Positions 38,155-47,750 of a DNA stretch of 56,656 nucleotides are shown here, piece by piece (the stretch's first letter is position 1; every line of letters starts with the position of its first letter). The DNA comes from Bacteroidota bacterium (GTDB taxonomy: Bacteria; Bacteroidota; Bacteroidia; Bacteroidales; ML635J-15). Below the pieces are notes generated by a model. That model saw only the letters and a list, made by a program, of their open reading frames with translations, did not search any database and had not been told where the DNA came from. The stretch lies in assembly GCA_051747965.1 (NCBI GenBank), contig JBNJGS010000009.1, forward strand, positions 2,965 through 59,620, given 5' to 3'. The position numbers and the translations under genes were made by a program.

Positions 38155-38192
38155 AAAAAAAGGCCGGACAAGTATGTGCGGTCTTTTTTTTT
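38155..38192. terminator. Bidirectional intrinsic terminator
   Basis: A-run, imperfect GGCCG..CGGTC hairpin and T-run between convergent genes. Confidence 0.7.
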
Positions 38193-38239: not shown

Positions 38240-38935
38240 TCAATCCGGATTGAGATACAGGTTATCCTTGTGGAGGTCAATAATACCATACTTAATTGCA
38301 TATAATACCAGCCCGGCCAGATTTTTCACACCGGTTTTAAGGAAAATATTATTCCGGTGTCCATCCACGGTACGTTTGGAAACATTCAGTTTCTCTGCAA
38401 TTTCCTGAGCTGTCATCTGTCTGCAGATGAAAAGCAGAATTTCTTTTTCCCTGTCTGACAGTATGTTTCCTTGTCGTTCAAGCTCAGGTTTGGGAATATT
38501 GGCAGCAAACTGTTCCCGCATAACATCCATCTGCTCTGGCAGAAAGTAATACGATTTATTATGCACCTCTCTGATTACACTGACAAGCTTTTCGGGGCTA
38601 AGCCCTTTTGGGAGAAAAGCAGAAACCCCGGATTTCAGCATATATCCCATGAATGATTTTTTGTAATATGATGACACACTGATGACTTTGACATCAGGCC
38701 ATTGCTCCTTTAGTCTGATGGTTGTTTCTACACCGTCCAGACCTTTCATTCTCAAATCCATCAGAACGATATCCGGGACCTGTTCGGTTTTCTTCATAAA
38801 ACCAAGGAATTCAGTACCGGAGGCTGCTGTATGGATGATATGCAAATCATCTTCCCTGTCAAGGAACTCCTTCAGGAGGGAAACAATTAAAGTTTCATCA
38901 TCTACAATAGCCAGTGATATCCGGGAATTATCCAT
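38240..38935 (-). CDS. NarL/LuxR-family response regulator
   Basis: IVDDE, VLMDLRM..DG; HTH LSDREKEIL..TAQEIAEKLNVSKRTVDGHRNNI..KTG. Confidence 0.95.
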   Translation of the reverse strand: MDNSRISLAIVDDETLIVSLLKEFLDREDDLHIIHTAASGTEFLGFMKKTEQVPDIVLMDLRMKGLDGVETTIRLKEQWPDVKVISVSSYYKKSFMGYMLKSGVSAFLPKGLSPEKLVSVIREVHNKSYYFLPEQMDVMREQFAANIPKPELERQGNILSDREKEILLFICRQMTAQEIAEKLNVSKRTVDGHRNNIFLKTGVKNLAGLVLYAIKYGIIDLHKDNLYLNPD

Positions 38936-38951
38936 AAATTATCTGTCTTAA

Positions 38952-39710
38952 TCACACCGAAATATACAAAATAAACCGACTTCCCCCATTAAAATTGTTG
39001 GCAAATTTACAACGACCGTCAATATACTGTGTTCTCAGTTCAATATCCTTCAAACCCAGGCCGCCTGGAGGCTTGTTTTCAGGGAATCCCTGTCCGTTAT
39101 CTCTGATCACAAGGGAGATGGACTCATTGCTTTGGCGGTAAACAAGCTCAACTTTATCTGCAGCGGCATGTTTTAGGATATTGTTAATCACTTCTTTGAT
39201 GATACGAAACAATTGCAATTTCAGGGAAGCATCCGGCTCTTTTTCGTTATGATTGAGAAAATGCAATCTGATATCATGTTTTTCTTTGAGAATAAAACAG
39301 GCTTCCCGGATAAGTTCACGCATATCCGAGTGTTCAATCATTGGCGGCATGAGATCATGTGAAATATCCCGGGTCAGTTCTATGGTTTCACTTAGATGGT
39401 CTTCGGGATTTTTCTCATGGTTCTTTTCGGGCATACTCATCATCAGATGAATTGCTCTGAGCCGTCCTACAAGGTCGTCGTGCAGATCTGCTGCGATTCG
39501 GGCTCTCTCCTTTTCTCTTATATCAACCGATGCTTTGGCAAGTACCTTCTGATGCTCAATTTTCAAGCGGGATTGTTCTTCCTGTTCTCTCACCAATCGC
39601 CGGGTATATAAGCGAAGGATCAGGACAATGAGAATACCCAGTATTGCCACAATCAAAAAAACAAAACCTAAGCTGATTGCGAACGTTTGCGGGTCCTTCC
39701 AAGCTTCCAT
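38952..39710 (-). CDS. HisKA_3 histidine kinase with a single N-terminal TM and no sensor domain
   Basis: One TM helix; ERARIAADLHDDL; E.INNILKHA; DNGQGF; GLGL. Start MEAWKDP at 39710 overlaps the upstream gene. Confidence 0.9.
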   Translation of the reverse strand: MEAWKDPQTFAISLGFVFLIVAILGILIVLILRLYTRRLVREQEEQSRLKIEHQKVLAKASVDIREKERARIAADLHDDLVGRLRAIHLMMSMPEKNHEKNPEDHLSETIELTRDISHDLMPPMIEHSDMRELIREACFILKEKHDIRLHFLNHNEKEPDASLKLQLFRIIKEVINNILKHAAADKVELVYRQSNESISLVIRDNGQGFPENKPPGGLGLKDIELRTQYIDGRCKFANNFNGGSRFILYISV

Positions 39711-40345
39711 ATCATCAACATTAATATAACATTTGTTGTCAAAATAATAATTAACCTTGCAATCCAAAAATACGAAACAATTTCGAGACTTTCATTAATC
39801 ATGAAATTTATTGCAACAGCGAACAGCATACCAAACAAAGCCTGAAGGAAAAAAACTATACTAAGGATCACGTAATTCTTTACTATTTTCACATCAGGGT
39901 ATATGGCAATCTGTAGAAAGTATGTTATCGCAAACACAGCAATGATTAAGCTACAGTAAAATAAACTTATAAAATGCAGGTTTTGAAAATCACCTCCTAA
40001 AGCGTACATCACATCTCTGCTTACCAGAACGACACTCAATGAACTGAGACCAACTAACACGATACGATATTTTCCGGAGTGCAGCACATACTTAAGGTAA
40101 AATAAGCTTAAAATCACCAGTACTGAAAGATTTGACATTGGACTAATAAACAGATTTGTTCCCTCTTCGGAGAAATTCCTAAATATTAACGAAGCTATTT
40201 CAAAAACAGCATCGCCAACAAATAAGAAAGCCAGGATTTTATAAGGCTTTGGCAAGTGTTTGTAAAATATCACACTTATAATGATTGCTGCAACAATGAT
40301 AACATACAAAATACTTACAAACACTCCCCAAAGCTCCATTATCAT
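39668..40345 (-). CDS. Uncharacterised ~7-TM integral membrane protein (putative receptor subunit)
   Basis: About seven hydrophobic helices in 225 aa with short loops; overlaps the kinase start by 43 nt. Confidence 0.8.
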   Translation of the reverse strand: MIMELWGVFVSILYVIIVAAIIISVIFYKHLPKPYKILAFLFVGDAVFEIASLIFRNFSEEGTNLFISPMSNLSVLVILSLFYLKYVLHSGKYRIVLVGLSSLSVVLVSRDVMYALGGDFQNLHFISLFYCSLIIAVFAITYFLQIAIYPDVKIVKNYVILSIVFFLQALFGMLFAVAINFMINESLEIVSYFWIARLIIILTTNVILMLMIWKLGRTRKRSQSA

Positions 40346-40351
40346 AATTCA

Positions 40352-41005
40352 CTACTTTTTACAATTCGGCGGACAAGGCAGGGAGGTGTTTAGTGGCTGT
40401 CCGATGTCATTGTTTTCTTTCATAACAGACCATGCCACCAGATCGGCATAAAAGCCGGACACACTCGCCCCCTCATCATCAGGTGTAAGGCCAAAGCTAA
40501 ACAGCAAATGATCCAGATTATCATTTTGCAGCTTTTCCTTTATGGATGCGTAAGGCATACGGAATTCTGTAAACAGACCTTCCGGATGATCAACTTCAGT
40601 TTCCAAAAAAGAGGAGAGAAACATCCGCCAGCGGTAATGGCGTTTCAATGCTTCTTTCACAGTGATATCGACCCCATCGTCCTGATTATCTATAAAATCA
40701 GGATTACCGATATCATAGGCTGATTTGTACTCCTTAATCTGAATGGCATCCACTTCTTCCTGACTCATATCACCCCATTCTTTCTTTTCTAATTTGTCCG
40801 GCACCAAGATAAAAATTATTTTACCATTTTCAATCCCCATACGCAGGAAAATACGTTCTTCTATAAAAGGACTGAGGATTTGCTCATCGGATTTTGTCAT
40901 TACCAGATGATTTCCTTTTTGGATAAGTTGCTGAAGATCACTTGGTTTTATACGTGTTTGATTCCAGCTTGCAATGGCGTTGTCAATTCTTTCTTGTTTT
41001 GTCAT
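40352..41005 (-). CDS. Hypothetical soluble protein with C-terminal PCPPNC motif
   Basis: 217-aa ORF with no signal peptide, ending NTSLPCPPNCKK (its only two Cys); 6 nt upstream of the 7-TM gene. Confidence 0.8.
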   Translation of the reverse strand: MTKQERIDNAIASWNQTRIKPSDLQQLIQKGNHLVMTKSDEQILSPFIEERIFLRMGIENGKIIFILVPDKLEKKEWGDMSQEEVDAIQIKEYKSAYDIGNPDFIDNQDDGVDITVKEALKRHYRWRMFLSSFLETEVDHPEGLFTEFRMPYASIKEKLQNDNLDHLLFSFGLTPDDEGASVSGFYADLVAWSVMKENNDIGQPLNTSLPCPPNCKK

Positions 41006-41138
41006 AATAACGTTTTGTTTGGTTAAGATATAAAGGTAACAAAAAAAGAATATAATTTTCCTTCATGACCATATTTGCCTGTCTGAATGACTATTGGGCA
41101 TCTATTTATTCCAATTTCAGCTAAAACATTTCTTGAAT

Positions 41139-41169
41139 TTTGAATTTAAAAAACAGGTTATTATTTTTG
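41139..41169 (+). promoter_or_regulatory. Canonical Bacteroidota promoter TTTG-N19-TATTTTTG for bTHX
   Basis: TTTG at 41139-41142; TATTTTTG at 41162-41169. Confidence 0.7.
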
Positions 41170-41195
41170 TTTTGTAACCAAAAACGATGTATACC

Positions 41196-41315
41196 ATGGG
41201 TAAAGGAGACAAAAAAACCCGGAAAGGGAAAATTTTCAGAGGGTCTTATGGTAAACGCCGCCCTCAAGGAAAAGACAAATTTAACAAACCGGCAGACACT
41301 GCCGATAACAAATAA
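41196..41315 (+). CDS. thx: 30S ribosomal protein bTHX (THX), 39 aa
   Basis: Translation MGKGDKKTRKGKIFRGSYGKRRPQGKDKFNKPADTADNK matches the THX signature MGKGD.(K/R)T..GKI..G(S/T)YG..RP; has its own promoter and terminator; absent from the ORF track. Confidence 0.92.
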   Translation: MGKGDKKTRKGKIFRGSYGKRRPQGKDKFNKPADTADNK

Positions 41316-41387: not shown

Positions 41388-44300
41388 CTATTCAACATGT
41401 ATTCTGTCACCCTGTGAATGGGCATTGTATTCCGGTGCATACATACACTGAATGTTTGTTATACCATTGGAAAACTCCCCTGCATGCGTGACATACATTG
41501 GATACTCAAACACGTATGTGCCTTTTCTCAGTCTGCTGAAGAAGAAATCAACAGATGCATCGCGCACAGATTCATAATATCCCAGACCATCCTGATAGCG
41601 ATAAGCTGAACGTGTAGAGACAGGTTCAAGTGCAGCAGCGCGCATGTCTTTCATATGGACATATTCCATATCCCTGTCGCTGCGCAATATGATTCTGGCC
41701 ACCAGTTTATCCCCTACCCTGAGGGTGGTTTTCTCATCCAGCAATTTCAGTTCTGTGCCATCATCTGTATCGATTTTTTTGAATAGTTTTTTCTCCAGTT
41801 GCAGGGGTGTTTCATGCGATGTGATTTTGTCCATATCTTCAAAATACTGCCAGTGTAAAGCACCCCATGCCATGCCGGCACCCTTTTTGGTCAGTTTCAC
41901 CTCTGCCATTTCAGGATTCACTTCACTACCGGCCCAATCCATTCTGAAATAACCGGTTCCGGCTTCTGTTGTTACATCATCTTCCTCCTCCGGATCAATG
42001 GTTTCACCGCCCATCTCCACGATAACTCCGGCTTCAGTGTCAAGCAGATTCTGTCCTGTCAGAATAAGTGCATACACCGCTTCAGCAGTTGCCTTTGTGG
42101 TTTTCCAGTCCTGTGTACGTTTTTGATTGAGCAACCATTGCTTCATACGCTCCACAGCCTCCCGGTCATCTCCGGCTTCATCAAAAGCCTCTATCAGCAG
42201 TGCCTGGCTTTCCACCGGAGCCTGATACCAGTAATAGCCTCCGGCATTTTTCCAGTACATGCCTAACTCATCATCAACTATGGCATATTCCCGCAGTGAT
42301 GCGAGAATATCATCTGCAACATTCTCATTGCCGGTTCTGTGCATGAGCAGAGCAATCATGGCTTTTGTGTAATTGTTCATTTCCACCCAATATTCCCTGG
42401 CCTGATTATAGTAGTACTTATAAGCTTTGGAAGTTTGAGGTGAAATCTGGATTTCGCCATGATTAAAACTGCGGGTATAAAGATAGTGTACATGAATATT
42501 GGAGATATGCTTATCTTTCATTTCATCCTCATCAAAAGTGGATGTCAGGTAATCATAGTCCTTTTTTATTTGCTTATCAAGATAGTTTAATCCACTTTTT
42601 ATCATGGGATCTACTTCCCGGATTTGCTTGTCATCAAGCACATTGAGTTTCTTCAGGTGATTGAGCCCGGCCACAATATGCTGTGTGATATATCTGCTTT
42701 CGGGCATACCTTCAAACCAGGGCCATCCGCCGCTGCTAACCTGCTTTTGCTGCAGCTTTTTCAGAGCCGAAAACTGTTCTCTTGCCATGCGGTCCATGTC
42801 AAATAGCAAGCCGATTCGCCGTTTTCGTTCGGCTTCATTTTGTGCTTCAAGTACCCAGGGGGTTTGCTCCAGCATATTGGCTTTCAGGTCCTGATTTTTA
42901 TGAAGATTTGAATTCAGGGCATCAGACTCTGGCAGGTTTTTCCAGCTATCAAATATTCTCCGTATCTGAGGATCTGAATTGGCAATATGCTCAGCCAGAC
43001 TGTTGGCATAATACCTGCTAAATACCTGCTCGGAGCATTCATATGGATACTCCATCAGATAGGGCAAAGCCTGTACAGCATACCATGCAGGCCTCGGTGT
43101 TACTTCGAGGCTGAGCTTATGGTGTTTAAGGCTGGCGGAGGCATTACTCTCTTTGAGTTTGTCAAATGTCCACTTTTTTGTTGAGTTCCCATTGACATAC
43201 ATTGGCATGGATTCGGTAACCAGCATGCGGTTGCTGAGAACAGGCACCACTTTTTGCTCGCCGTCTCCATATTTATCAGTACGGGCTATGAGCTTATATT
43301 CAACAGCCTGCACATTATGTGGAATGTTCAGTGTGAATTTCACCGCTGCATTATCACCGGCATCAATTTCAAAACCAGGCTGTTGTTCAGACACAATCAC
43401 TTTGTCCGTGATATCCTCCCCTGAAAGTGCATCAATAAAGCCAAGCTCAACACTTCCATCCAGGGCTTCTTCAGACAGGTTGCTGATTTTCACACTGAGG
43501 GTCATTTCATCGTTTTCACGGAAAAAGCGAGGCATGTTTGGTACAAGCATGAGTTTTTTGCGTGTTACCATTTCTTTTTCTGAAACAAGAGTACTGAGAT
43601 CTTTGGTATGCGCCATGGCCAGAAATTTCCATGCAGTAAGGCTTTCAGGGGAAGTAAAACTAAAGCTGATTTCTCCTTTTTCATTGGTACGCAATTGAGG
43701 AAGAAAAAAGGCAGTTTCATTGAAATTTTTCCTGATTTTCACATCTCCGGTTCCGGCCTTATCCTGTCTCTGCTCTGCAGGCATTTTTTCATTGGAGGCA
43801 CTTCTATCAGTATCTTTAATTTCTTCTTCCGATGTTTGTGTTTTTACCGGCGGGGAATCAGCGGCCATTTCATCTGTCATTTCGGCTTCACCGGATGCAG
43901 CAGACATAAAAACGCCATCACTGCGCGCGCCCCTCAGATTTGTGGTTGCATAGTTGCCGTAATAATTCAAACCAAACATATTCATGACCGGTTCCATGCC
44001 CTCTACCTTAGCATGTTCGGGTTGATATTCATTGATCAAAAAGGATGCATTGCCTGTTTGAAAAGCGGTGGTGGTGTAGTTTGCTTGTTTATACTCGGGG
44101 TGATACAGATTGAAAGCAAAATTGTTTTCATACAATGCGTCAAGGGATGCATCATACATGCTTGCCAGCATTTCAGCAGCGGCTGCGTCTCCTTTCCATC
44201 CTGATATTTTCACGCGTATTTCTTCTGATTCTCCCGGCAGCAATTCGTTTCTGAAATGCAGGTACTCCAGTTTCAGTTTCTTATTATCAAAAGGCACTGT

Positions 44301-47300
44301 CAGTGTTTTTCTTTGCTGATACAGTTCTCCTTCATAAACAAGAATGGCTGAGACAGTAATTCCACCCCTGAGTTCTTCTGTGACCTCATAAGTGAGTCTC
44401 TTTCCGGAATTTCTAAGTCTAAGCCAGTCATCATGCAATGTTTTGTCCTCATGTTCTATATTGACTAAAACCCTGGCATTTTTCAGGGAAGAGGCAATAT
44501 CAACATTAATCACCTCGCCCACAGAATACTGCGATTTTTCAGTATGTACATTCAGTGCCTTACTCACACCCGGTGTGGATTCTGAATTATCGTAAACCCT
44601 GATGTATTGTTTATCGACCACCGGCATACCAAATTCATCAGTTGCACGTAGTTCAATTCTGTATGCACCAGGAGTAATATTTCCTGTAGACGGCAAGGCG
44701 TATGTTTCACTATTTGCAGTATTGAATGGTATGCTGGCCCGCTTTTCTTTTACAGGAAAGTTTTCTATACGGCCTTCATCGCGATATTCGTGATTTGGTA
44801 ATTTATGTTTCCACTCCTGTTGATCAACCATACTAAATTCCGGAACATCCCAGTCTTTTTCAATCAGAACCTTATCTGGCTGTTGCAGCTCATATATCAC
44901 AATTGTTCCTTTGGCCTCAATACTTTGGGAATTCAGGTTTGTTGAAGAGACAGTAAGACTGTCGAGCTGAGACAGATCAACCGATGAAGGCAGGCTGGTG
45001 CTCAGCTTCAGGGTACGATACCCTACAACAAGCGTACGTGTGACAGATTGCGTTTCACCAGTAATATCTGTGACTTCTGCTTCAATGGTAAAACGATAGC
45101 TCACATCCTGGTCAGCAGGATAATCAGGAATTGCCCTGGGCACGAAGCTAAGATCGAAACTACCGCTTTTATCGCAATGCGTTTCGCCGTGGGTCATGAG
45201 TTCCCGCTGCTGTGGCAGATATCCATACCGCCACATTCTGTGAAATACAGGTTCTCTGTATACACGGTACTTAACATCTGCACCGGAGAGTTTTGCTCCT
45301 GTATATGAGGCTGCACTTCCTTTGAGTGTAACGCGCCTGCCAAGCAGATAGTTGCCATCGGGGTCATCCATTTCCACTTCGAAAGCCGGACGCTTATACT
45401 CTTCAAGCTGCACATATTGCGAACCGGATGGTGTTTTTATGGTCAGACGTCCGTTCAACAAACCCTCCGGAATGACAAGCTCAGCTGAAAAGCTACCAAA
45501 CTCATTGGTTTTTACGGTTTTGGTGGTGATGTTCTGATGATTGGGATCCAGAAAAGAAAGCGAGGTAGTATAGTTGTCCAGGATTTCGTGATTTTTTCCC
45601 TTTTGTTGCAGGCATATTCCTTTTACATGTATGGTTTGCCCGGGCCTGTACACAGCTCTGTCAGTAAAAAAACGGGTTGTTTCTCTCCACTTTTCATTTT
45701 GCCCTGAATACATGTAATGGTATTGGGGATCTGTCCGCAATATTTCCTTGCCGTTGTCAATTTCAAAAACCAAAGAATGTGATCTTCCTGCCAGATTAAA
45801 TTCAGCCATTCCCTTTGCTGAGGTTTTGGTTTGGCTTAGCTTTTCGTATTTATAGTCGCCTGCTTTGTAATTGTAGGTACGGAAAGAAGCTTTGACTTTT
45901 GCGCCTTGTGTTGGCATACCTGTTTTACTGTTTGTAACAAAGAGCTGAAGGCTTTCATCTCTGCTTATTTGTCTGGTGTACCATGCTATGTTTGTTACTT
46001 GCAAAGATTTATACACAACAAAATTTTCTTTCTCACTATCCATTTTCTGTGTGGACAGGAACAGGACATAAAATCCCCCGGGCAATCCTTCACTGATAAA
46101 CTCTGTTGTATGTGACACAAAATCAGGCTTACCGGGCAACTCAAGTTCTTTACTGCGGATGATTTCACCATTTTTCAGGAGTTCAGCCCTGCGTTTTTCT
46201 CCATAATGCTTTCTGACAATACTGCTGAATTCATCAGGATCTATTTTCATAATGGTATAATTCATCTTATCCATGTTTTTGTACTCCACAAAAACAGGAA
46301 ATGGCTGATCAGGAATCACATTGTTTTCAGCGGTAAAACTCAGGTGTAAGTTTTTTATTTTGTTTTGAAGTTGAATGGCCTGACTGGCGGCCCTGGTTTC
46401 CGGATGATTGTTTTTAATCTGCCTGCAAATTTCGTTGCATTTCTCATACAATCCTGCTTTTTTGTTTTCTCCGTACACATGTTTGGTTTCCTCCGCCTTA
46501 TTGAAATACCATTTTGCCAGGCATATATCAATCTCACTGATTACCGGTGAATTTTCAAACTGCATGTGCAAACGTGACAGGGCATGAAAATGCTGATCTT
46601 CTGCATCCTTTCCGGAATAAAACTTTGCTGCAATCTCGAGACGTTTCAAGTCGGTGTAAACCCTGGCGTACGCAAGATTTTCATTGACACGGTATCCCAG
46701 CAGATCTTTCAGGACAGCCATGGCTTTCTCAGCGGCATCCGGGCTGTCTAAAGTATAATCGCTTGCAAGGAATAATCGTGCAGGTAAAAAAACATTACTA
46801 TCACTCAATACCGTCATGCCCTGGTTCTGGTTTTCAGCACGGCTCTTGTAATAATCCGCTATTTCGTGGGCGAAAAAATCATACAAGGCTGGCTGTATCT
46901 TTTCACTGTATTCATCTTGTTTAATCAATTCCGGATATTTCGTGATGGAAATTTTTCCAAGCTGCTTTTTGTAGGCCAGGGCAGATTGATGTTCTTCATC
47001 AATAAGCTGGAAGAAGTCCTCTTGTGTCCAGGTTTTGATGTCGTCTTCGCGATGTTCCCCTGTACTGGTTCTTCGAACCACCGACCATCTGTTTACCGTA
47101 TAGTACATTGAATAAAGCCTGGCTGAAAGCAAATGCATAAAAGCCCTGACTTCGGGTTCATACATATCTTTATCAGACTGCAGACTTTCAATGGCCTGAA
47201 TTATCTGATCTTCCTGATAATAATTGCTCAGCTTAATCCGGTAAATCATGGATTTCATGACCTGTTCATTATCCTTATCGGTGACGGCGGCACTGAAAAT

Positions 47301-47456
47301 GCTGTCAGCTACTTTCAGGGCGGATTGAGGCAGCCCTTTTTGCTCATGCTTTTTCAGATTATCCCATGCTTTATCATAATCCATATTTTCCTGGGCTTTA
47401 CCACTGATGAGGAAGCCAAAAGTTAAAAGTCCGATAAAAAGAAGTGTCTTTTTCAT
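41388..47456 (-). CDS. Bacterial alpha-2-macroglobulin family protein
   Basis: Signal peptide MKKTLLF..GKA-Q; FTDRAVYRPGQT; EEYKRP; IRKNFNETAFF; PRFFRE.D; thioester PYECSEQ; GGWPWF; CMYAPE. Confidence 0.93.
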   Translation of the reverse strand: MKKTLLFIGLLTFGFLISGKAQENMDYDKAWDNLKKHEQKGLPQSALKVADSIFSAAVTDKDNEQVMKSMIYRIKLSNYYQEDQIIQAIESLQSDKDMYEPEVRAFMHLLSARLYSMYYTVNRWSVVRRTSTGEHREDDIKTWTQEDFFQLIDEEHQSALAYKKQLGKISITKYPELIKQDEYSEKIQPALYDFFAHEIADYYKSRAENQNQGMTVLSDSNVFLPARLFLASDYTLDSPDAAEKAMAVLKDLLGYRVNENLAYARVYTDLKRLEIAAKFYSGKDAEDQHFHALSRLHMQFENSPVISEIDICLAKWYFNKAEETKHVYGENKKAGLYEKCNEICRQIKNNHPETRAASQAIQLQNKIKNLHLSFTAENNVIPDQPFPVFVEYKNMDKMNYTIMKIDPDEFSSIVRKHYGEKRRAELLKNGEIIRSKELELPGKPDFVSHTTEFISEGLPGGFYVLFLSTQKMDSEKENFVVYKSLQVTNIAWYTRQISRDESLQLFVTNSKTGMPTQGAKVKASFRTYNYKAGDYKYEKLSQTKTSAKGMAEFNLAGRSHSLVFEIDNGKEILRTDPQYHYMYSGQNEKWRETTRFFTDRAVYRPGQTIHVKGICLQQKGKNHEILDNYTTSLSFLDPNHQNITTKTVKTNEFGSFSAELVIPEGLLNGRLTIKTPSGSQYVQLEEYKRPAFEVEMDDPDGNYLLGRRVTLKGSAASYTGAKLSGADVKYRVYREPVFHRMWRYGYLPQQRELMTHGETHCDKSGSFDLSFVPRAIPDYPADQDVSYRFTIEAEVTDITGETQSVTRTLVVGYRTLKLSTSLPSSVDLSQLDSLTVSSTNLNSQSIEAKGTIVIYELQQPDKVLIEKDWDVPEFSMVDQQEWKHKLPNHEYRDEGRIENFPVKEKRASIPFNTANSETYALPSTGNITPGAYRIELRATDEFGMPVVDKQYIRVYDNSESTPGVSKALNVHTEKSQYSVGEVINVDIASSLKNARVLVNIEHEDKTLHDDWLRLRNSGKRLTYEVTEELRGGITVSAILVYEGELYQQRKTLTVPFDNKKLKLEYLHFRNELLPGESEEIRVKISGWKGDAAAAEMLASMYDASLDALYENNFAFNLYHPEYKQANYTTTAFQTGNASFLINEYQPEHAKVEGMEPVMNMFGLNYYGNYATTNLRGARSDGVFMSAASGEAEMTDEMAADSPPVKTQTSEEEIKDTDRSASNEKMPAEQRQDKAGTGDVKIRKNFNETAFFLPQLRTNEKGEISFSFTSPESLTAWKFLAMAHTKDLSTLVSEKEMVTRKKLMLVPNMPRFFRENDEMTLSVKISNLSEEALDGSVELGFIDALSGEDITDKVIVSEQQPGFEIDAGDNAAVKFTLNIPHNVQAVEYKLIARTDKYGDGEQKVVPVLSNRMLVTESMPMYVNGNSTKKWTFDKLKESNASASLKHHKLSLEVTPRPAWYAVQALPYLMEYPYECSEQVFSRYYANSLAEHIANSDPQIRRIFDSWKNLPESDALNSNLHKNQDLKANMLEQTPWVLEAQNEAERKRRIGLLFDMDRMAREQFSALKKLQQKQVSSGGWPWFEGMPESRYITQHIVAGLNHLKKLNVLDDKQIREVDPMIKSGLNYLDKQIKKDYDYLTSTFDEDEMKDKHISNIHVHYLYTRSFNHGEIQISPQTSKAYKYYYNQAREYWVEMNNYTKAMIALLMHRTGNENVADDILASLREYAIVDDELGMYWKNAGGYYWYQAPVESQALLIEAFDEAGDDREAVERMKQWLLNQKRTQDWKTTKATAEAVYALILTGQNLLDTEAGVIVEMGGETIDPEEEDDVTTEAGTGYFRMDWAGSEVNPEMAEVKLTKKGAGMAWGALHWQYFEDMDKITSHETPLQLEKKLFKKIDTDDGTELKLLDEKTTLRVGDKLVARIILRSDRDMEYVHMKDMRAAALEPVSTRSAYRYQDGLGYYESVRDASVDFFFSRLRKGTYVFEYPMYVTHAGEFSNGITNIQCMYAPEYNAHSQGDRIHVE

Positions 47457-47750
47457 TTGATTTGTTTTTTTGTTTGGATTTTGATGCATGGATACATCAA
47501 AATCCATAATTACTTTATATTTCCTGAAGATAATAAAAAATCAACGAAATTTCCGGAAAGCGTCCGCAGAATCTGTCAATACAAAGAATCAAAAAAAAAG
47601 AAGCCGACTGATCTGATTCTCAAAATGCATGCATAAGATTAGAGTGGACAGGCCTTTTGGCGAAGAAGATATTTTGCAATAATATTTCATGTTTTTAACA
47701 AAAAATCTTACATTTATCGTTTAATAATTCTTCAAAAACATCAATTTATT

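Follow-up and report, generated by a model that had tools for sequence, protein, structure and literature searches.

The window (the whole 56,656-nt stretch of Bacteroidota DNA analysed here) contains, as identified by ORF calling, four minus-strand genes in the order gene 1 to gene 4. Gene 1 (40352..41005, 217 aa) encodes a soluble protein ending in LPCPPNCKK, which we call the tail protein. It is followed after a gap of 6 nt by gene 2 (39668..40345, 225 aa), encoding a stand-alone 7-TM protein, the end of which overlaps the start of gene 3 by 43 nt (39668..39710, minus strand). Gene 3 (38952..39710, 252 aa from its ATG) codes for a HisKA_3 histidine kinase and is separated by 16 nt from gene 4 (38240..38935, 231 aa), which codes for a NarL/LuxR-type response regulator with a REC domain and a GerE HTH domain. 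The space separating gene 4 from a convergent CoA-ligase-like gene contains an A-tract/GC hairpin/T-tract (approximately 38155..38190; MFE -22.2 kcal/mol, z = -2.55) that is likely to act as a bidirectional intrinsic terminator; the hairpin is absent from the list of a simple terminator scan. At the other end, a divergent intergenic region (41006..41186) lies between gene 1 and the plus-strand gene of the 30S ribosomal protein Thx (41187..41315; Pfam Thx, E 2e-9). We presume that this region holds the operon promoter; consensus-like promoter matches occur in it at background frequency only, and in comparison to the closest relative it is hypervariable, as is gene 1. Contigs from metatranscriptome libraries, with an identity of at least 99%, cover portions of each of the four genes and span the gene 1/gene 2 and kinase/regulator junctions; these contigs may include DNA, and a single transcript is not proven by them. 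A preliminary description of this locus had its anatomy right throughout, from the gene order, spacings, terminator and divergent region to the seven TM segments, the one-TM HisKA_3 kinase and the NarL/LuxR regulator.

Gene 1 has no hydrophobic segment and no signal peptide, and its sole cysteines are C211 and C215. Both are found together with the P-x-P-P motif in the tail codons S208 to K217 (SLPCPPNCKK; 40355..40384, minus strand), C211-x3-C215 and P212-P213 (PP, not PPP) being located 4 codons before the stop. Neither a Pfam nor an NCBIfam model matched gene 1, and Pfam, including DUF2946, matched none of 87 members of its family and none of 10 diverse tail proteins. A profile search with gene 1 yielded 349 cluster representatives; the bodies of the family are globular and comprise 110-250 aa. 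The hallmark of the tail is D-x-x-x-P-[C/V]-P-P-[F/Y/x]-[C/G], seen either as CPPxC or, where the cysteines are missing, as PxPPF. The invariant part in the gene-1 subfamily is P-x-P-P-[F/Y], and the most invariant feature of the family is PP, with 144 of the 148 full-length members retaining it. Most members have lost the Cys pair: PCPPxC is present in just 10 of the 148, and the subgroup closest to the window does not retain the second Cys (tails PTPPFEK, PSPPYGK and PCPPYYK). A second motif, [F/Y]xLL, ends 107/148 family members 6-12 residues past PP; window gene 1 lacks this end, which places it in an atypical clade. Like window gene 1, most Bacteroidia homologues are devoid of a signal peptide, and a crude heuristic detected signal or lipoprotein peptides in 25 of 78 motif-bearing homologues. 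The Cys pair may hint at thiol/redox or soft-metal chemistry.

For gene 2, seven hydrophobic segments joined by loops of at most 14 aa are predicted, with an N-out/C-in orientation according to the positive-inside rule, and the same topology was obtained for 78 of 78 homologues. An alignment of gene 2 and its homologues (23 sequences) contained no invariant residue. With no invariant polar residue as a catalytic candidate and no match to a peptidase or transporter family, the protein looks non-enzymatic. Pfam searches with the 23 sequences at E ≤ 0.1 returned nothing beyond single stray matches, and gene 2 had no NCBIfam match. One of the stray matches was to 7TMR-DISM_7TM (PF07695; E 0.074, in 1 of the 23 members only); when the gene-2 family alignment was compared by hhalign with 16 aligned, bona fide PF07695 regions, the probability was 5% over 13 columns, and we rejected this assignment. 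Judged by sequence, gene 2 is a member of a new 7-TM family without a Pfam or NCBIfam model in the samples tested. The locus had been put forward as a candidate undescribed system in the preliminary description, in agreement with the failure of Pfam and NCBIfam models to match either the gene-1 or the gene-2 family. A Glu or Gln in TM3 is found in 87 of about 110 gene-2 homologues and is absent from window gene 2, a further atypical trait of the window's clade. No fusion of the 7-TM protein to a kinase was seen, all matches of the phylum-wide search lying in open frames of 204-290 aa.

The kinase encoded by gene 3 matches the Pfam models HisKA_3 (28.1 bits, cut-off 24) and HATPase_c (35.5 bits, cut-off 26.4). 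Its N-terminus consists of a stub of 13 aa and a single TM helix (residues 14-32), without any sensor domain. In an alignment of 20 homologues the catalytic residues H77, N177, D204xG206 and G217xG219 were invariant. A TTG at 39767 would provide an alternative start, resulting in a 271-aa protein; we favour the ATG since the beginning M-x-E/A-W-x-D-P is conserved in relatives. Within the overlap of genes 2 and 3 both reading frames are conserved (I-W-K-x-G in gene 2, M-x-E/A-W-x-D-P in gene 3), and the overlap amounts to 37-49 nt with an identical frame offset in the window and in loci L004-L008. The nearest NCBIfam models to gene 3 are MctS, UhpB and LiaS, all far under their cut-offs. Gene 4 matches Response_reg (E 1e-21) and GerE (E 5e-14) of Pfam. 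Genes 3 and 4 thus make up a two-component system of the NarL/LuxR class, as defined by a HisKA_3 kinase and a REC-GerE regulator. A search with PADLOC for anti-phage defence systems gave no match for gene 1, gene 2 or the kinase, and weak HTH-level matches only for the regulator.

The four genes are one real operon of a signalling module that is widespread in the Bacteroidota, and their conservation in other genomes goes far beyond chance. In 21 of 22 gene-1 loci (the window and 21 from other genomes), gene 1, a multi-TM gene, a kinase gene and a regulator gene follow each other on one strand; for loci recovered by the gene-1 profile alone this was the case in 14 of 15. None of the flanking genes is conserved across genera, and the unit is therefore self-contained. 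With a gene-2 profile we obtained matches in 65 of 401 sampled Bacteroidota genomes, i.e. about one in six, with 112 homologues in 103 loci. Among the 99 upstream neighbours that are not gene-2 homologues themselves, 78 bear a tail motif (CP..C in 53, P.PP in 23, CPP in 2), whereas CP..C, scored within the last 32 residues, and P.PP were seen in merely 2 and 5 of 656 other ORFs of the same loci. These locus counts overstate the number of independent events, as related genomes are not independent. According to custom HMMs, the genes after 66 of the 112 gene-2 homologues encode a HisKA_3 kinase and a regulator. Ten downstream proteins missed by these HMMs were tested, and all ten turned out to be kinases from different classes (PAS+HisKA, hybrid, HisKA_2, HisKA and His_kinase PF06580); in those re-inspected, the N-terminus again comprises a short stub and a single TM helix. 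The gene pair hence accompanies at least four kinase classes, positioned directly upstream, and the tight coupling or overlap of the 7-TM gene with the kinase gene is conserved. The 73 homologous kinases encoded right after gene-2 homologues have a median length of 267 aa, with one hydrophobic segment in 60. The preliminary description had linked gene 1 to 7-TM, kinase and regulator genes and mentioned PCPPxC-ending genes beside membrane-protein/kinase pairs in other Bacteroidota. Both expectations are borne out, the former by the gene-1 loci, the latter by the excess of CP..C tails over controls; the conditions for refutation named in that description thus give a mixed picture, as linkage holds while the exact PCPPxC motif is only partly conserved. 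Likewise, the idea of a sensor-less kinase with a 7-TM partner agrees with the 7-TM gene being always the immediate, often overlapping upstream neighbour.

The genes of the unit differ strongly in their rates of change. Between the window and its closest relative (locus L047), identity amounts to 97% in the flanks, 93.5% for the regulator, 88% for gene 2, 83% for the kinase and 50.2% for gene 1 over its whole length, with all 10 residues of the gene-1 tail being identical. For gene 1 we calculated a dS of 1.43 in this comparison, versus values of 0.15-0.57. Usually, the regulator is more conserved than the kinase, and the kinase more than genes 1 and 2, so that the putative input genes are the ones evolving fastest. 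Gene-1 distances follow those of gene 2 more closely than those of the kinase or the regulator (gene 1-gene 2 partial correlation given the regulator, r = 0.44, equalled in none of 2000 permutations), and gene-2 distances correlate with those of the kinase at r = 0.82. The hypervariable body of the tail protein suggests a specificity determinant under unusual selection.

Sensor-less histidine kinases are common, and the source of their signal is mostly obscure. We propose, with about even confidence, that the 7-TM protein is an input subunit acting in trans which, together with the tail protein as co-sensor, drives the sensor-less kinase. According to this proposal, gene 2 would provide the membrane-embedded input to the kinase, putatively coupled to it via helix-helix and stub contacts. 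The tail protein would modulate the 7-TM/kinase complex through its conserved C-terminal motif, with the fast-evolving body supplying specificity. The kinase would autophosphorylate at H77 and control the gene-4 regulator, whose targets would be genes elsewhere in the genome and perhaps the operon itself. Our data show the anatomy, the conserved gene order, the motif, the topology, the intact catalytic residues and the portability of the pair between kinase classes, whereas the contacts in the complex, the direction of signalling and the type of signal are inferred. One difficulty concerns localisation, because homologues with and without export peptides share the constant 7-TM topology, and it is hard to see how a single docking site could accommodate partners from either side of it. 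Further points against the proposal are the atypical features of the window's clade and a genome in which three tandem gene-1 copies occur with neither a 7-TM nor a kinase gene close by.

Several known systems resemble this arrangement in part. In LiaFSR/VraTSR and UhpABC, a HisKA_3 kinase and a NarL-type regulator need a separate membrane protein encoded in the same operon, which is the likeness to the operon described here. In contrast to the latter, they have no protein with a Cys/Pro-rich C-terminal tail. UhpC is a 12-TM MFS protein, LiaS has two TM helices and UhpB multiple ones; gene 2 has no Pfam or NCBIfam match as a LiaF-family or UhpC-type protein. In SaePQRS, GraXSR-VraFG, MgrB-PhoQ and CpxP-CpxA, a kinase that has hardly any sensor domain, or none, is under the influence of a small modulator protein. 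These modulators are soluble proteins, lipoproteins or membrane proteins, sometimes accompanied by a polytopic membrane protein, and the periplasmic cysteines of MgrB couple PhoQ to the redox state. They differ from the present unit in the families of their proteins, in kinase class and in their hosts, which are mostly Gram-positive, and have neither a CPPxC/PxPPF tail nor a 7-TM protein of the gene-2 type. In RocA-CsrS (CovS) of group A and Abx1-CovS of group B Streptococcus, too, a polytopic membrane protein is involved, which binds the histidine kinase within the membrane and thereby adjusts the kinase/phosphatase balance. RocA does so via its 7-TM N-terminal region, which suffices to bind and modulate CsrS (PMC6635533). 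We count this precedent as support for the 7-TM protein acting on the kinase. Unlike gene 2, RocA contains a cytoplasmic pseudokinase domain, is encoded by an orphan gene and lacks a tail-protein partner; no sequence relationship between gene 2, which has no Pfam match, and RocA was found.

If the pair is an input device, it would represent a new receptor family in bacterial signal transduction and account for many operons annotated as hypothetical protein, membrane protein, kinase and regulator, in a phylum important to gut, soil and aquatic ecology. As a recognisable gene pair it marks sensor-less kinases of at least four classes in roughly one sixth of the sampled Bacteroidota genomes, and the conserved CPPxC/PxPPF tail offers a direct experimental handle by way of point mutants. 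A broader version of this proposal, which we put forward only tentatively, sees the pair as a new, general receptor class, in which the CPPxC tail acts as a plug on a diversifying bait protein and gates a 7-TM transducer that may be wired, through one TM helix, to a kinase of any class. The 50% divergence of gene 1 in a locus otherwise 93-99% identical would then reflect balancing or diversifying selection, and the recognised cue might be, for example, self/non-self, phage or thiol-reactive.

Gene 1 could instead be a cis-acting sensor leader whose C-terminal Pro-Pro serves as a ribosome-arrest peptide in the manner of the DUF2946 proteins CutF and CruR, with a ligand of the Cys pair, or folding or export of the nascent chain, modulating stalling and thereby setting translation or transcription of genes 2-4. 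We consider this unlikely, though it has several points to its credit. PP is the feature kept most strictly, and in 78 loci its median distance is 10 residues to the stop codon and 44 nt to the start of gene 2, with genes 1 and 2 separated by a median of 9 nt. Arrest would account for the fixed tail alongside a diverging body, and also for one motif being common to exported and non-exported homologues, because arrest occurs on the ribosome. DUF2946 regulators, according to the CutF preprint, are likewise small ORFs directly upstream of the regulated genes and are characterised by CxxxC together with a proline motif at the C-terminus; one member requires its signal peptide, and the other can do without it (bioRxiv 10.1101/2025.02.05.636593). 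The CxxxC of CutF, however, is distant from its PPP, whereas the Cys pair of gene 1 brackets PP, and a metal enzyme or transporter is encoded downstream instead of a signalling cassette. The Pfam searches described above argue against membership of gene 1 in DUF2946. A stable fold shielding the gene-2 start, such as a stem-loop, is not predicted either: in the window sequence, to which this calculation applies, the junction (40290-40400, minus strand) has an MFE of -17.3 kcal/mol versus a shuffle mean of -20.7 (z = +1.08). Furthermore, the motif is PP[F/Y] rather than PPP, and PPF and PPY are probably weak EF-P-dependent stallers. The [F/Y]xLL end would still be untranslated at the time of arrest, so that its conservation downstream of PP points to a role at the protein level. 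Finally, globular bodies of the observed size, conserved across the 349 representatives, and orphan tandem copies such as the three gene-1 copies in locus L028, a single genome in which no 7-TM or kinase gene lies nearby, exceed what a leader peptide needs.

Less probable still is that genes 1 and 2 are co-transcribed outputs or effectors, for instance an envelope-stress membrane protein and its partner, and that the kinase helix senses the membrane directly. The arrangement of the genes says nothing about which way information flows and, taken alone, leaves inputs indistinguishable from co-regulated outputs; liaIH accompanies liaFSR as an output of that system. Single-TM intramembrane-sensing kinases can answer to the membrane state on their own, and with no conserved target genes nearby, the regulon could consist mainly of the operon itself. 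On the other hand, the pair is associated with at least four unrelated kinase classes and in every case lies directly upstream, which is typical of an input module and not of a regulon member, and the conserved overlap with the kinase gene and the correlated gene 2-kinase distances argue in the same direction.

The preliminary description had favoured gene 1, or a disulfide-looped peptide released from its C-terminus, as an exported signal to a 7-TM/kinase receptor resembling Agr or ComQXPA, for quorum or kin sensing. This now appears very improbable and finds no support in our analysis, the Cys pair being mostly lost, no matched family suggesting a processing or export function and the tail being identical in the closest relative. 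Agr (AgrBDCA) and ComQXPA do share with the present unit a four-gene logic in which the input genes evolve fast and the regulator is conserved, and ComP/ComA is likewise a HisKA_3/NarL-type pair. CPxxC tails recur beside the 7-TM family, and in the clearly exported homologues, those with signal or lipoprotein peptides, a disulfide could form. Moreover, three tandem paralogues differ at 6-9 of the 10 positions that separate PP from FYLL, versus 10-17 of 205 elsewhere, reminiscent of a variable core. As to Agr, gene 2 has no AgrB match, the 217-aa gene 1 is no short AgrD-like precursor, the kinase is HisKA_3 with one TM instead of HPK10 with multiple TM helices, and the regulator is GerE-type, not LytTR. 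With ComQXPA, the sole matching feature is the HisKA_3/NarL-type output: no polyprenyl synthase (ComQ) match occurs in the unit, and the kinase, with its one TM, has no multi-TM sensor of its own, the receptor helices being encoded apart from it. The conserved unit includes no transporter, peptidase or modifying enzyme, gene 2 offers no invariant polar residue, and window gene 1 is without a signal peptide; a periplasmic protein or peptide would in addition have to pass the outer membrane to act between cells. Between close relatives, it is the tail that stays constant and the body that varies, the reverse of what a pherotype core would show.

The cassette consists of four minus-strand open reading frames whose spacings (6-nt gap, 43-nt overlap and 16-nt gap) are exactly those given in the preliminary description, and the observation of the cassette as a whole was confirmed. 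Gene 1 (40352-41005, 217 aa) lacks hydrophobic segments, and its only cysteines (C211 and C215) lie within the terminal LPCPPNCKK. Gene 2 (39668-40345, 225 aa) has seven hydrophobic segments with connecting loops of at most 14 residues; the concentration of Lys/Arg in every second loop and at the C-terminal end predicts an N-out/C-in topology. Gene 3 (38952-39710, 252 aa counted from ATG) matches HisKA_3 and HATPase_c and starts with a 13-residue stub and a single TM helix (residues 14-32), with no candidate sensor domain; its H77 and its N, G1 and G2 boxes do not vary among 20 homologues. Gene 4 (38240-38935, 231 aa) encodes a regulator with REC and GerE domains. Between gene 4 and a convergently oriented CoA-ligase-like gene lies an A-tract/hairpin/T-tract (about 38155-38190), and the gene for 30S ribosomal protein Thx (41187-41315, plus strand; Pfam Thx, E 2e-9) is divergent from gene 1. 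Neither gene 1 nor gene 2 has a significant match in Pfam or NCBIfam, the sole NCBIfam row for gene 1 scoring 17 bits where 670 are required, and a PADLOC search of the cassette gave no real match.

Word-based homologue searches returned only the self-match for gene 1 and three relatives for gene 2. A single-protein scan for loci recovered one genome locus, L047, from a Bacteroidales MAG that is the closest relative of the window, and none among metagenome contigs. Among 401 genomes of the order, six distant gene 2 homologues (20-27% identity) were found, each preceded by a gene-1-like ORF and followed by a kinase gene; the regulator followed in the three loci reaching that far, and in all six after wider fetches. 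For linkage we took 12-kb regions around 15 gene 1 places outside the window plus these six loci, scanning them with our own HMMs and inspecting gaps by hand. The order gene 1, multi-TM protein, kinase, regulator on one strand was conserved in 21 of 22 loci, and in 14 of the 15 recovered by gene 1 alone. Across genera the flanks share no gene family, so that the four genes are a self-contained unit. The exception (L028; genome G599, contig 4, 1203-3249) carries three tandem gene 1 paralogues, 88-92% identical, beside unrelated genes: downstream come two double-zinc-ribbon proteins (193 and 1265 aa) and a DUF1266 protein, the vicinity is devoid of 7-TM and kinase genes, and a complete cassette is present elsewhere in the same genome.

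The 7-TM family is the more widespread component. A profile from 23 gene 2 proteins matched 65 of 401 genomes sampled across the phylum and 42 of 180 genera, other classes included, with up to five copies per genome; the gene 1 profile matched 14 of the 401, all of the window's class. The open frames around the gene 2 matches measure 204-290 aa throughout, so that none includes a kinase, and a word-matching search for longer fused 7-TM/kinase proteins, in itself weak evidence, found none either. From 112 homologues in 103 loci we set aside seven with a gene 2 copy upstream and six without an upstream ORF. In the last 32 residues of the remaining 99 upstream neighbours, CP..C was found in 53, P.PP without a Cys pair in 23, CPP in two and PP only in nine, with none of these in 12; among the 656 remaining ORFs of these loci with 100 aa or more, two have CP..C and five P.PP. 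The statement in the preliminary description that PCPPxC-ending genes occur beside membrane-protein/kinase pairs is thus correct. Typical tails of the upstream partners are PCPPFC, PCPPYC, PCPPWC, PCPPLC, PCPSTC and PCPDFC. These partners share an N-terminal helix, (I/V)-s-L-x-x-A-k-x-W, located at the extreme N-terminus in some and directly behind a signal or lipoprotein peptide in others (our signal-peptide calls, ORF starts, taken as the longest ORF, and kinase and regulator HMMs are home-made and crude). Ten diverse partners matched no Pfam or NCBIfam family. In five loci (L090 on contig 7 of G585, L101 in G728, L115, L119 and L140) two or three tandem 7-TM genes stand between one tail-protein gene and one kinase gene. 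In another (L072, 693-2489) one 7-TM gene lies between two tail proteins, with a 116-aa protein lacking a signal peptide upstream and a 249-aa lipoprotein-like protein ending in PCPPLC between the 7-TM gene and the kinase.

The gene 1 family proper was delimited with a profile of seven proteins alignable over their full length. Searched against 1.84 billion representatives, it gave 349 matches at E <= 1e-3, 172 at <= 1e-10 and 23 at <= 1e-30, nearly all of 200-270 aa; the best 150 showed no fusion to other domains. Pro-Pro occurs inside the last 70 residues in 144 of 148 full-length matches, in the context D(117)/N(23)-hydrophobic-T/S/V-x-P(124)-V(46)/C(36)-P-P-F(104)/Y(29), and an aromatic-x-L-hydrophobic motif follows 4-25 residues downstream in 107. 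Because PCPPxC proper is present in only ten of the 148, and tails of the window's nearest subgroup (PTPPFEK, PSPPYGK, PCPPYYK) lack the second cysteine, this residue is not a family feature. Gene 1 of the window, with PCPPNC, has the motif in its widespread form; most of its own subfamily has switched to PVPPF. Pfam gave just stray single matches (E 0.012 or weaker) for 87 family members. Profile searches of PDB sequences returned no real relative for gene 1, the 9k9w row being the sum of three 6-bit repeats, and no real match for gene 2. Database and cluster look-ups gave no name other than 'hypothetical protein'; the sole named cultured carrier is Neptunitalea lumnitzerae, from which one gene 1 homologue (P0047) is recorded.

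By our own HMMs, a HisKA_3 kinase and then a regulator follow 66 of the 112 gene 2 homologues. Ten downstream proteins missed by the HisKA_3 HMM were examined with Pfam, and all ten are histidine kinases of other classes: six PAS+HisKA, one hybrid, one HisKA_2, one HisKA and one His_kinase (PF06580). The 73 HisKA_3 kinases directly after gene 2 homologues have a median length of 267 aa, with exactly one hydrophobic segment in 60; the longer PAS kinases inspected likewise begin with a short N-terminal stub and one TM helix. The pair of tail protein and 7-TM protein is thus a portable unit, which stands before kinases with no extracytoplasmic or multi-TM sensor of their own.

Gene 2 contains no invariant residue among 23 sequences. 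The best-kept positions in the 112-sequence set are N64, where TM3 begins on the periplasmic side (95 of 111), position 75, likewise in TM3 (Glu in 70 and Gln in 17, but Val in the window), and Y83, Y41, W160, G164 and Y168. Such a pattern suits a receptor or transducer rather than an enzyme. Kinship with 7TMR-DISM_7TM was rejected by comparison with that family. The subgroup of the window has NLF..P, INF[L/M]IN and FW at the periplasmic ends of TM3, TM6 and TM7, which co-occur with the kinase periplasmic stub E-x-W-x-D-P and are, like the stub, absent from other subgroups; as one clade-level correlation this is just suggestive. The overlap of gene 2 with the kinase gene (39668-39710 in the window) measures 37-49 nt, keeps a constant frame offset in the window and L004-L008 and has conserved residues in both frames; no slippery heptamer for a programmed -1 frameshift fusing the two, an idea prompted by the constant frame, was seen by eye.

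The best-supported reading, to which we give an even chance of being correct, is that the 7-TM protein would act as the input subunit provided in trans to the sensor-less kinase, that the tail protein would be a co-sensor or modulator working via its conserved C-terminal motif, and that unlinked targets would receive the output via the NarL/LuxR regulator. The anatomy of the cassette and its comparative genomics are established by the data; the contacts, the signalling direction and the cue are inferred. Each element of this reading has a precedent. LiaF, UhpC, SaeP/Q, GraX and MgrB have accessory roles comparable to that proposed for the pair. The 7-TM region of RocA is described as binding and tuning CsrS (PMC6635533).

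The main weakness of the input-module reading is localisation, as tail proteins with and without signal peptides occur beside a 7-TM protein of fixed topology. A flip of the 7-TM topology to follow signal-peptide-bearing partners was ruled out, the orientation being identical in 78 of 78 cases with either kind of partner. This puzzle makes it attractive to regard the C-terminal Pro-Pro motif as a ribosome-arrest element, by analogy to the DUF2946 proteins CutF and CruR, presented as such in a preprint (10.1101/2025.02.05.636593). Cysteines bracket Pro-Pro, and its median distances are 10 codons to the stop and 44 nt to the start of the next gene. However, there is no DUF2946 match, no shielding RNA structure was found in the window, a conserved motif sits past the putative stall site, and tail proteins have large conserved globular bodies, so that we consider an arrest element unlikely. 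Less probable still is that genes 1 and 2 are outputs rather than inputs of the system, which is hard to reconcile with the portability of the pair across kinase classes.

Regulator and kinase are the conserved parts of the cassette and genes 1 and 2 the fast ones; in two syntenic pairs of loci (L033/L034 and L038/L040) genes 1 and 2 are much less conserved than their flanking genes. Window and L047 are 93-99% identical in DNA across the region apart from two stretches: the 5' end of the kinase gene has 70-78%, and gene 1 with its presumed promoter forms an island of 54-68% (compared at 40400-41200 in the window and 3200-3994 in L047). Protein identity and dS are 97.2% and 0.15 for the flank, 93.5% and 0.32 for the regulator, 87.6% and 0.23 for gene 2, 83.3% and 0.57 for the kinase, and 50.2% and 1.43 for gene 1. 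The comparison suggests allelic replacement or long-maintained alleles at gene 1 and its presumed promoter. All ten residues of the tail SLPCPPNCKK are identical, a pattern of variable body and constant tail that rests on this one pair; the L028 paralogues show the opposite, 6-9 of 10 residues differing between PP and FYLL versus 10-17 of 205 elsewhere. The interpretation in the preliminary description stands as regards a split receptor and a recurring motif, whereas its secreted, disulfide-looped peptide pheromone is very improbable, with export and processing functions lacking and the constant and variable parts reversed from expectation in the sole close comparison. Gene 1 distances follow those of gene 2 better than those of kinase or regulator (partial r 0.44, reached in 0 of 2000 permutations); gene 2 and kinase distances correlate at r = 0.82. 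The Thx gene is 97% identical to that of L047 in DNA although it adjoins the hypervariable island. In metatranscriptome libraries of two studies, contigs of >=99% identity partly cover each of the four genes and run across the junctions of gene 1 with gene 2 and of kinase with regulator; DNA carry-over is possible, and stretches without RNA-library cover carry no evidential weight.

Two-component systems dependent on accessory proteins are already known; this module appears to be undescribed, no description having been found in literature full text (a listing in supplementary files is possible). The module combines two families matching no Pfam or NCBIfam model, a tail that is diagnostic for it (CPPxC/PxPPF), a new family of 7-TM proteins and the association with kinases of at least four classes.

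Just upstream of the cassette lies a gene for a 2039-aa bacterial alpha-2-macroglobulin (41388-47507, minus strand) with MG2, A2M, bait region and bMG10. In a distant genome (L076, 1-759), the ORF upstream of the tail-protein gene has an alpha-2-macroglobulin-like C-terminus closely resembling this one, which could be coincidental or point to a functional link. Between its alpha-2-macroglobulin gene and thx, L047 has an extra 739-aa gene (734-2953), absent from the window, with Sortilin-Vps10 repeats and a Por/T9SS C-terminal sorting domain. Elsewhere in the genome of the window, a conventional 7TMR-DISM_7TM protein (contig 10, 46182-46778) is encoded in an open frame of 688 aa, so that the organism possesses 7-TM signalling proteins of the fused as well as the stand-alone kind.
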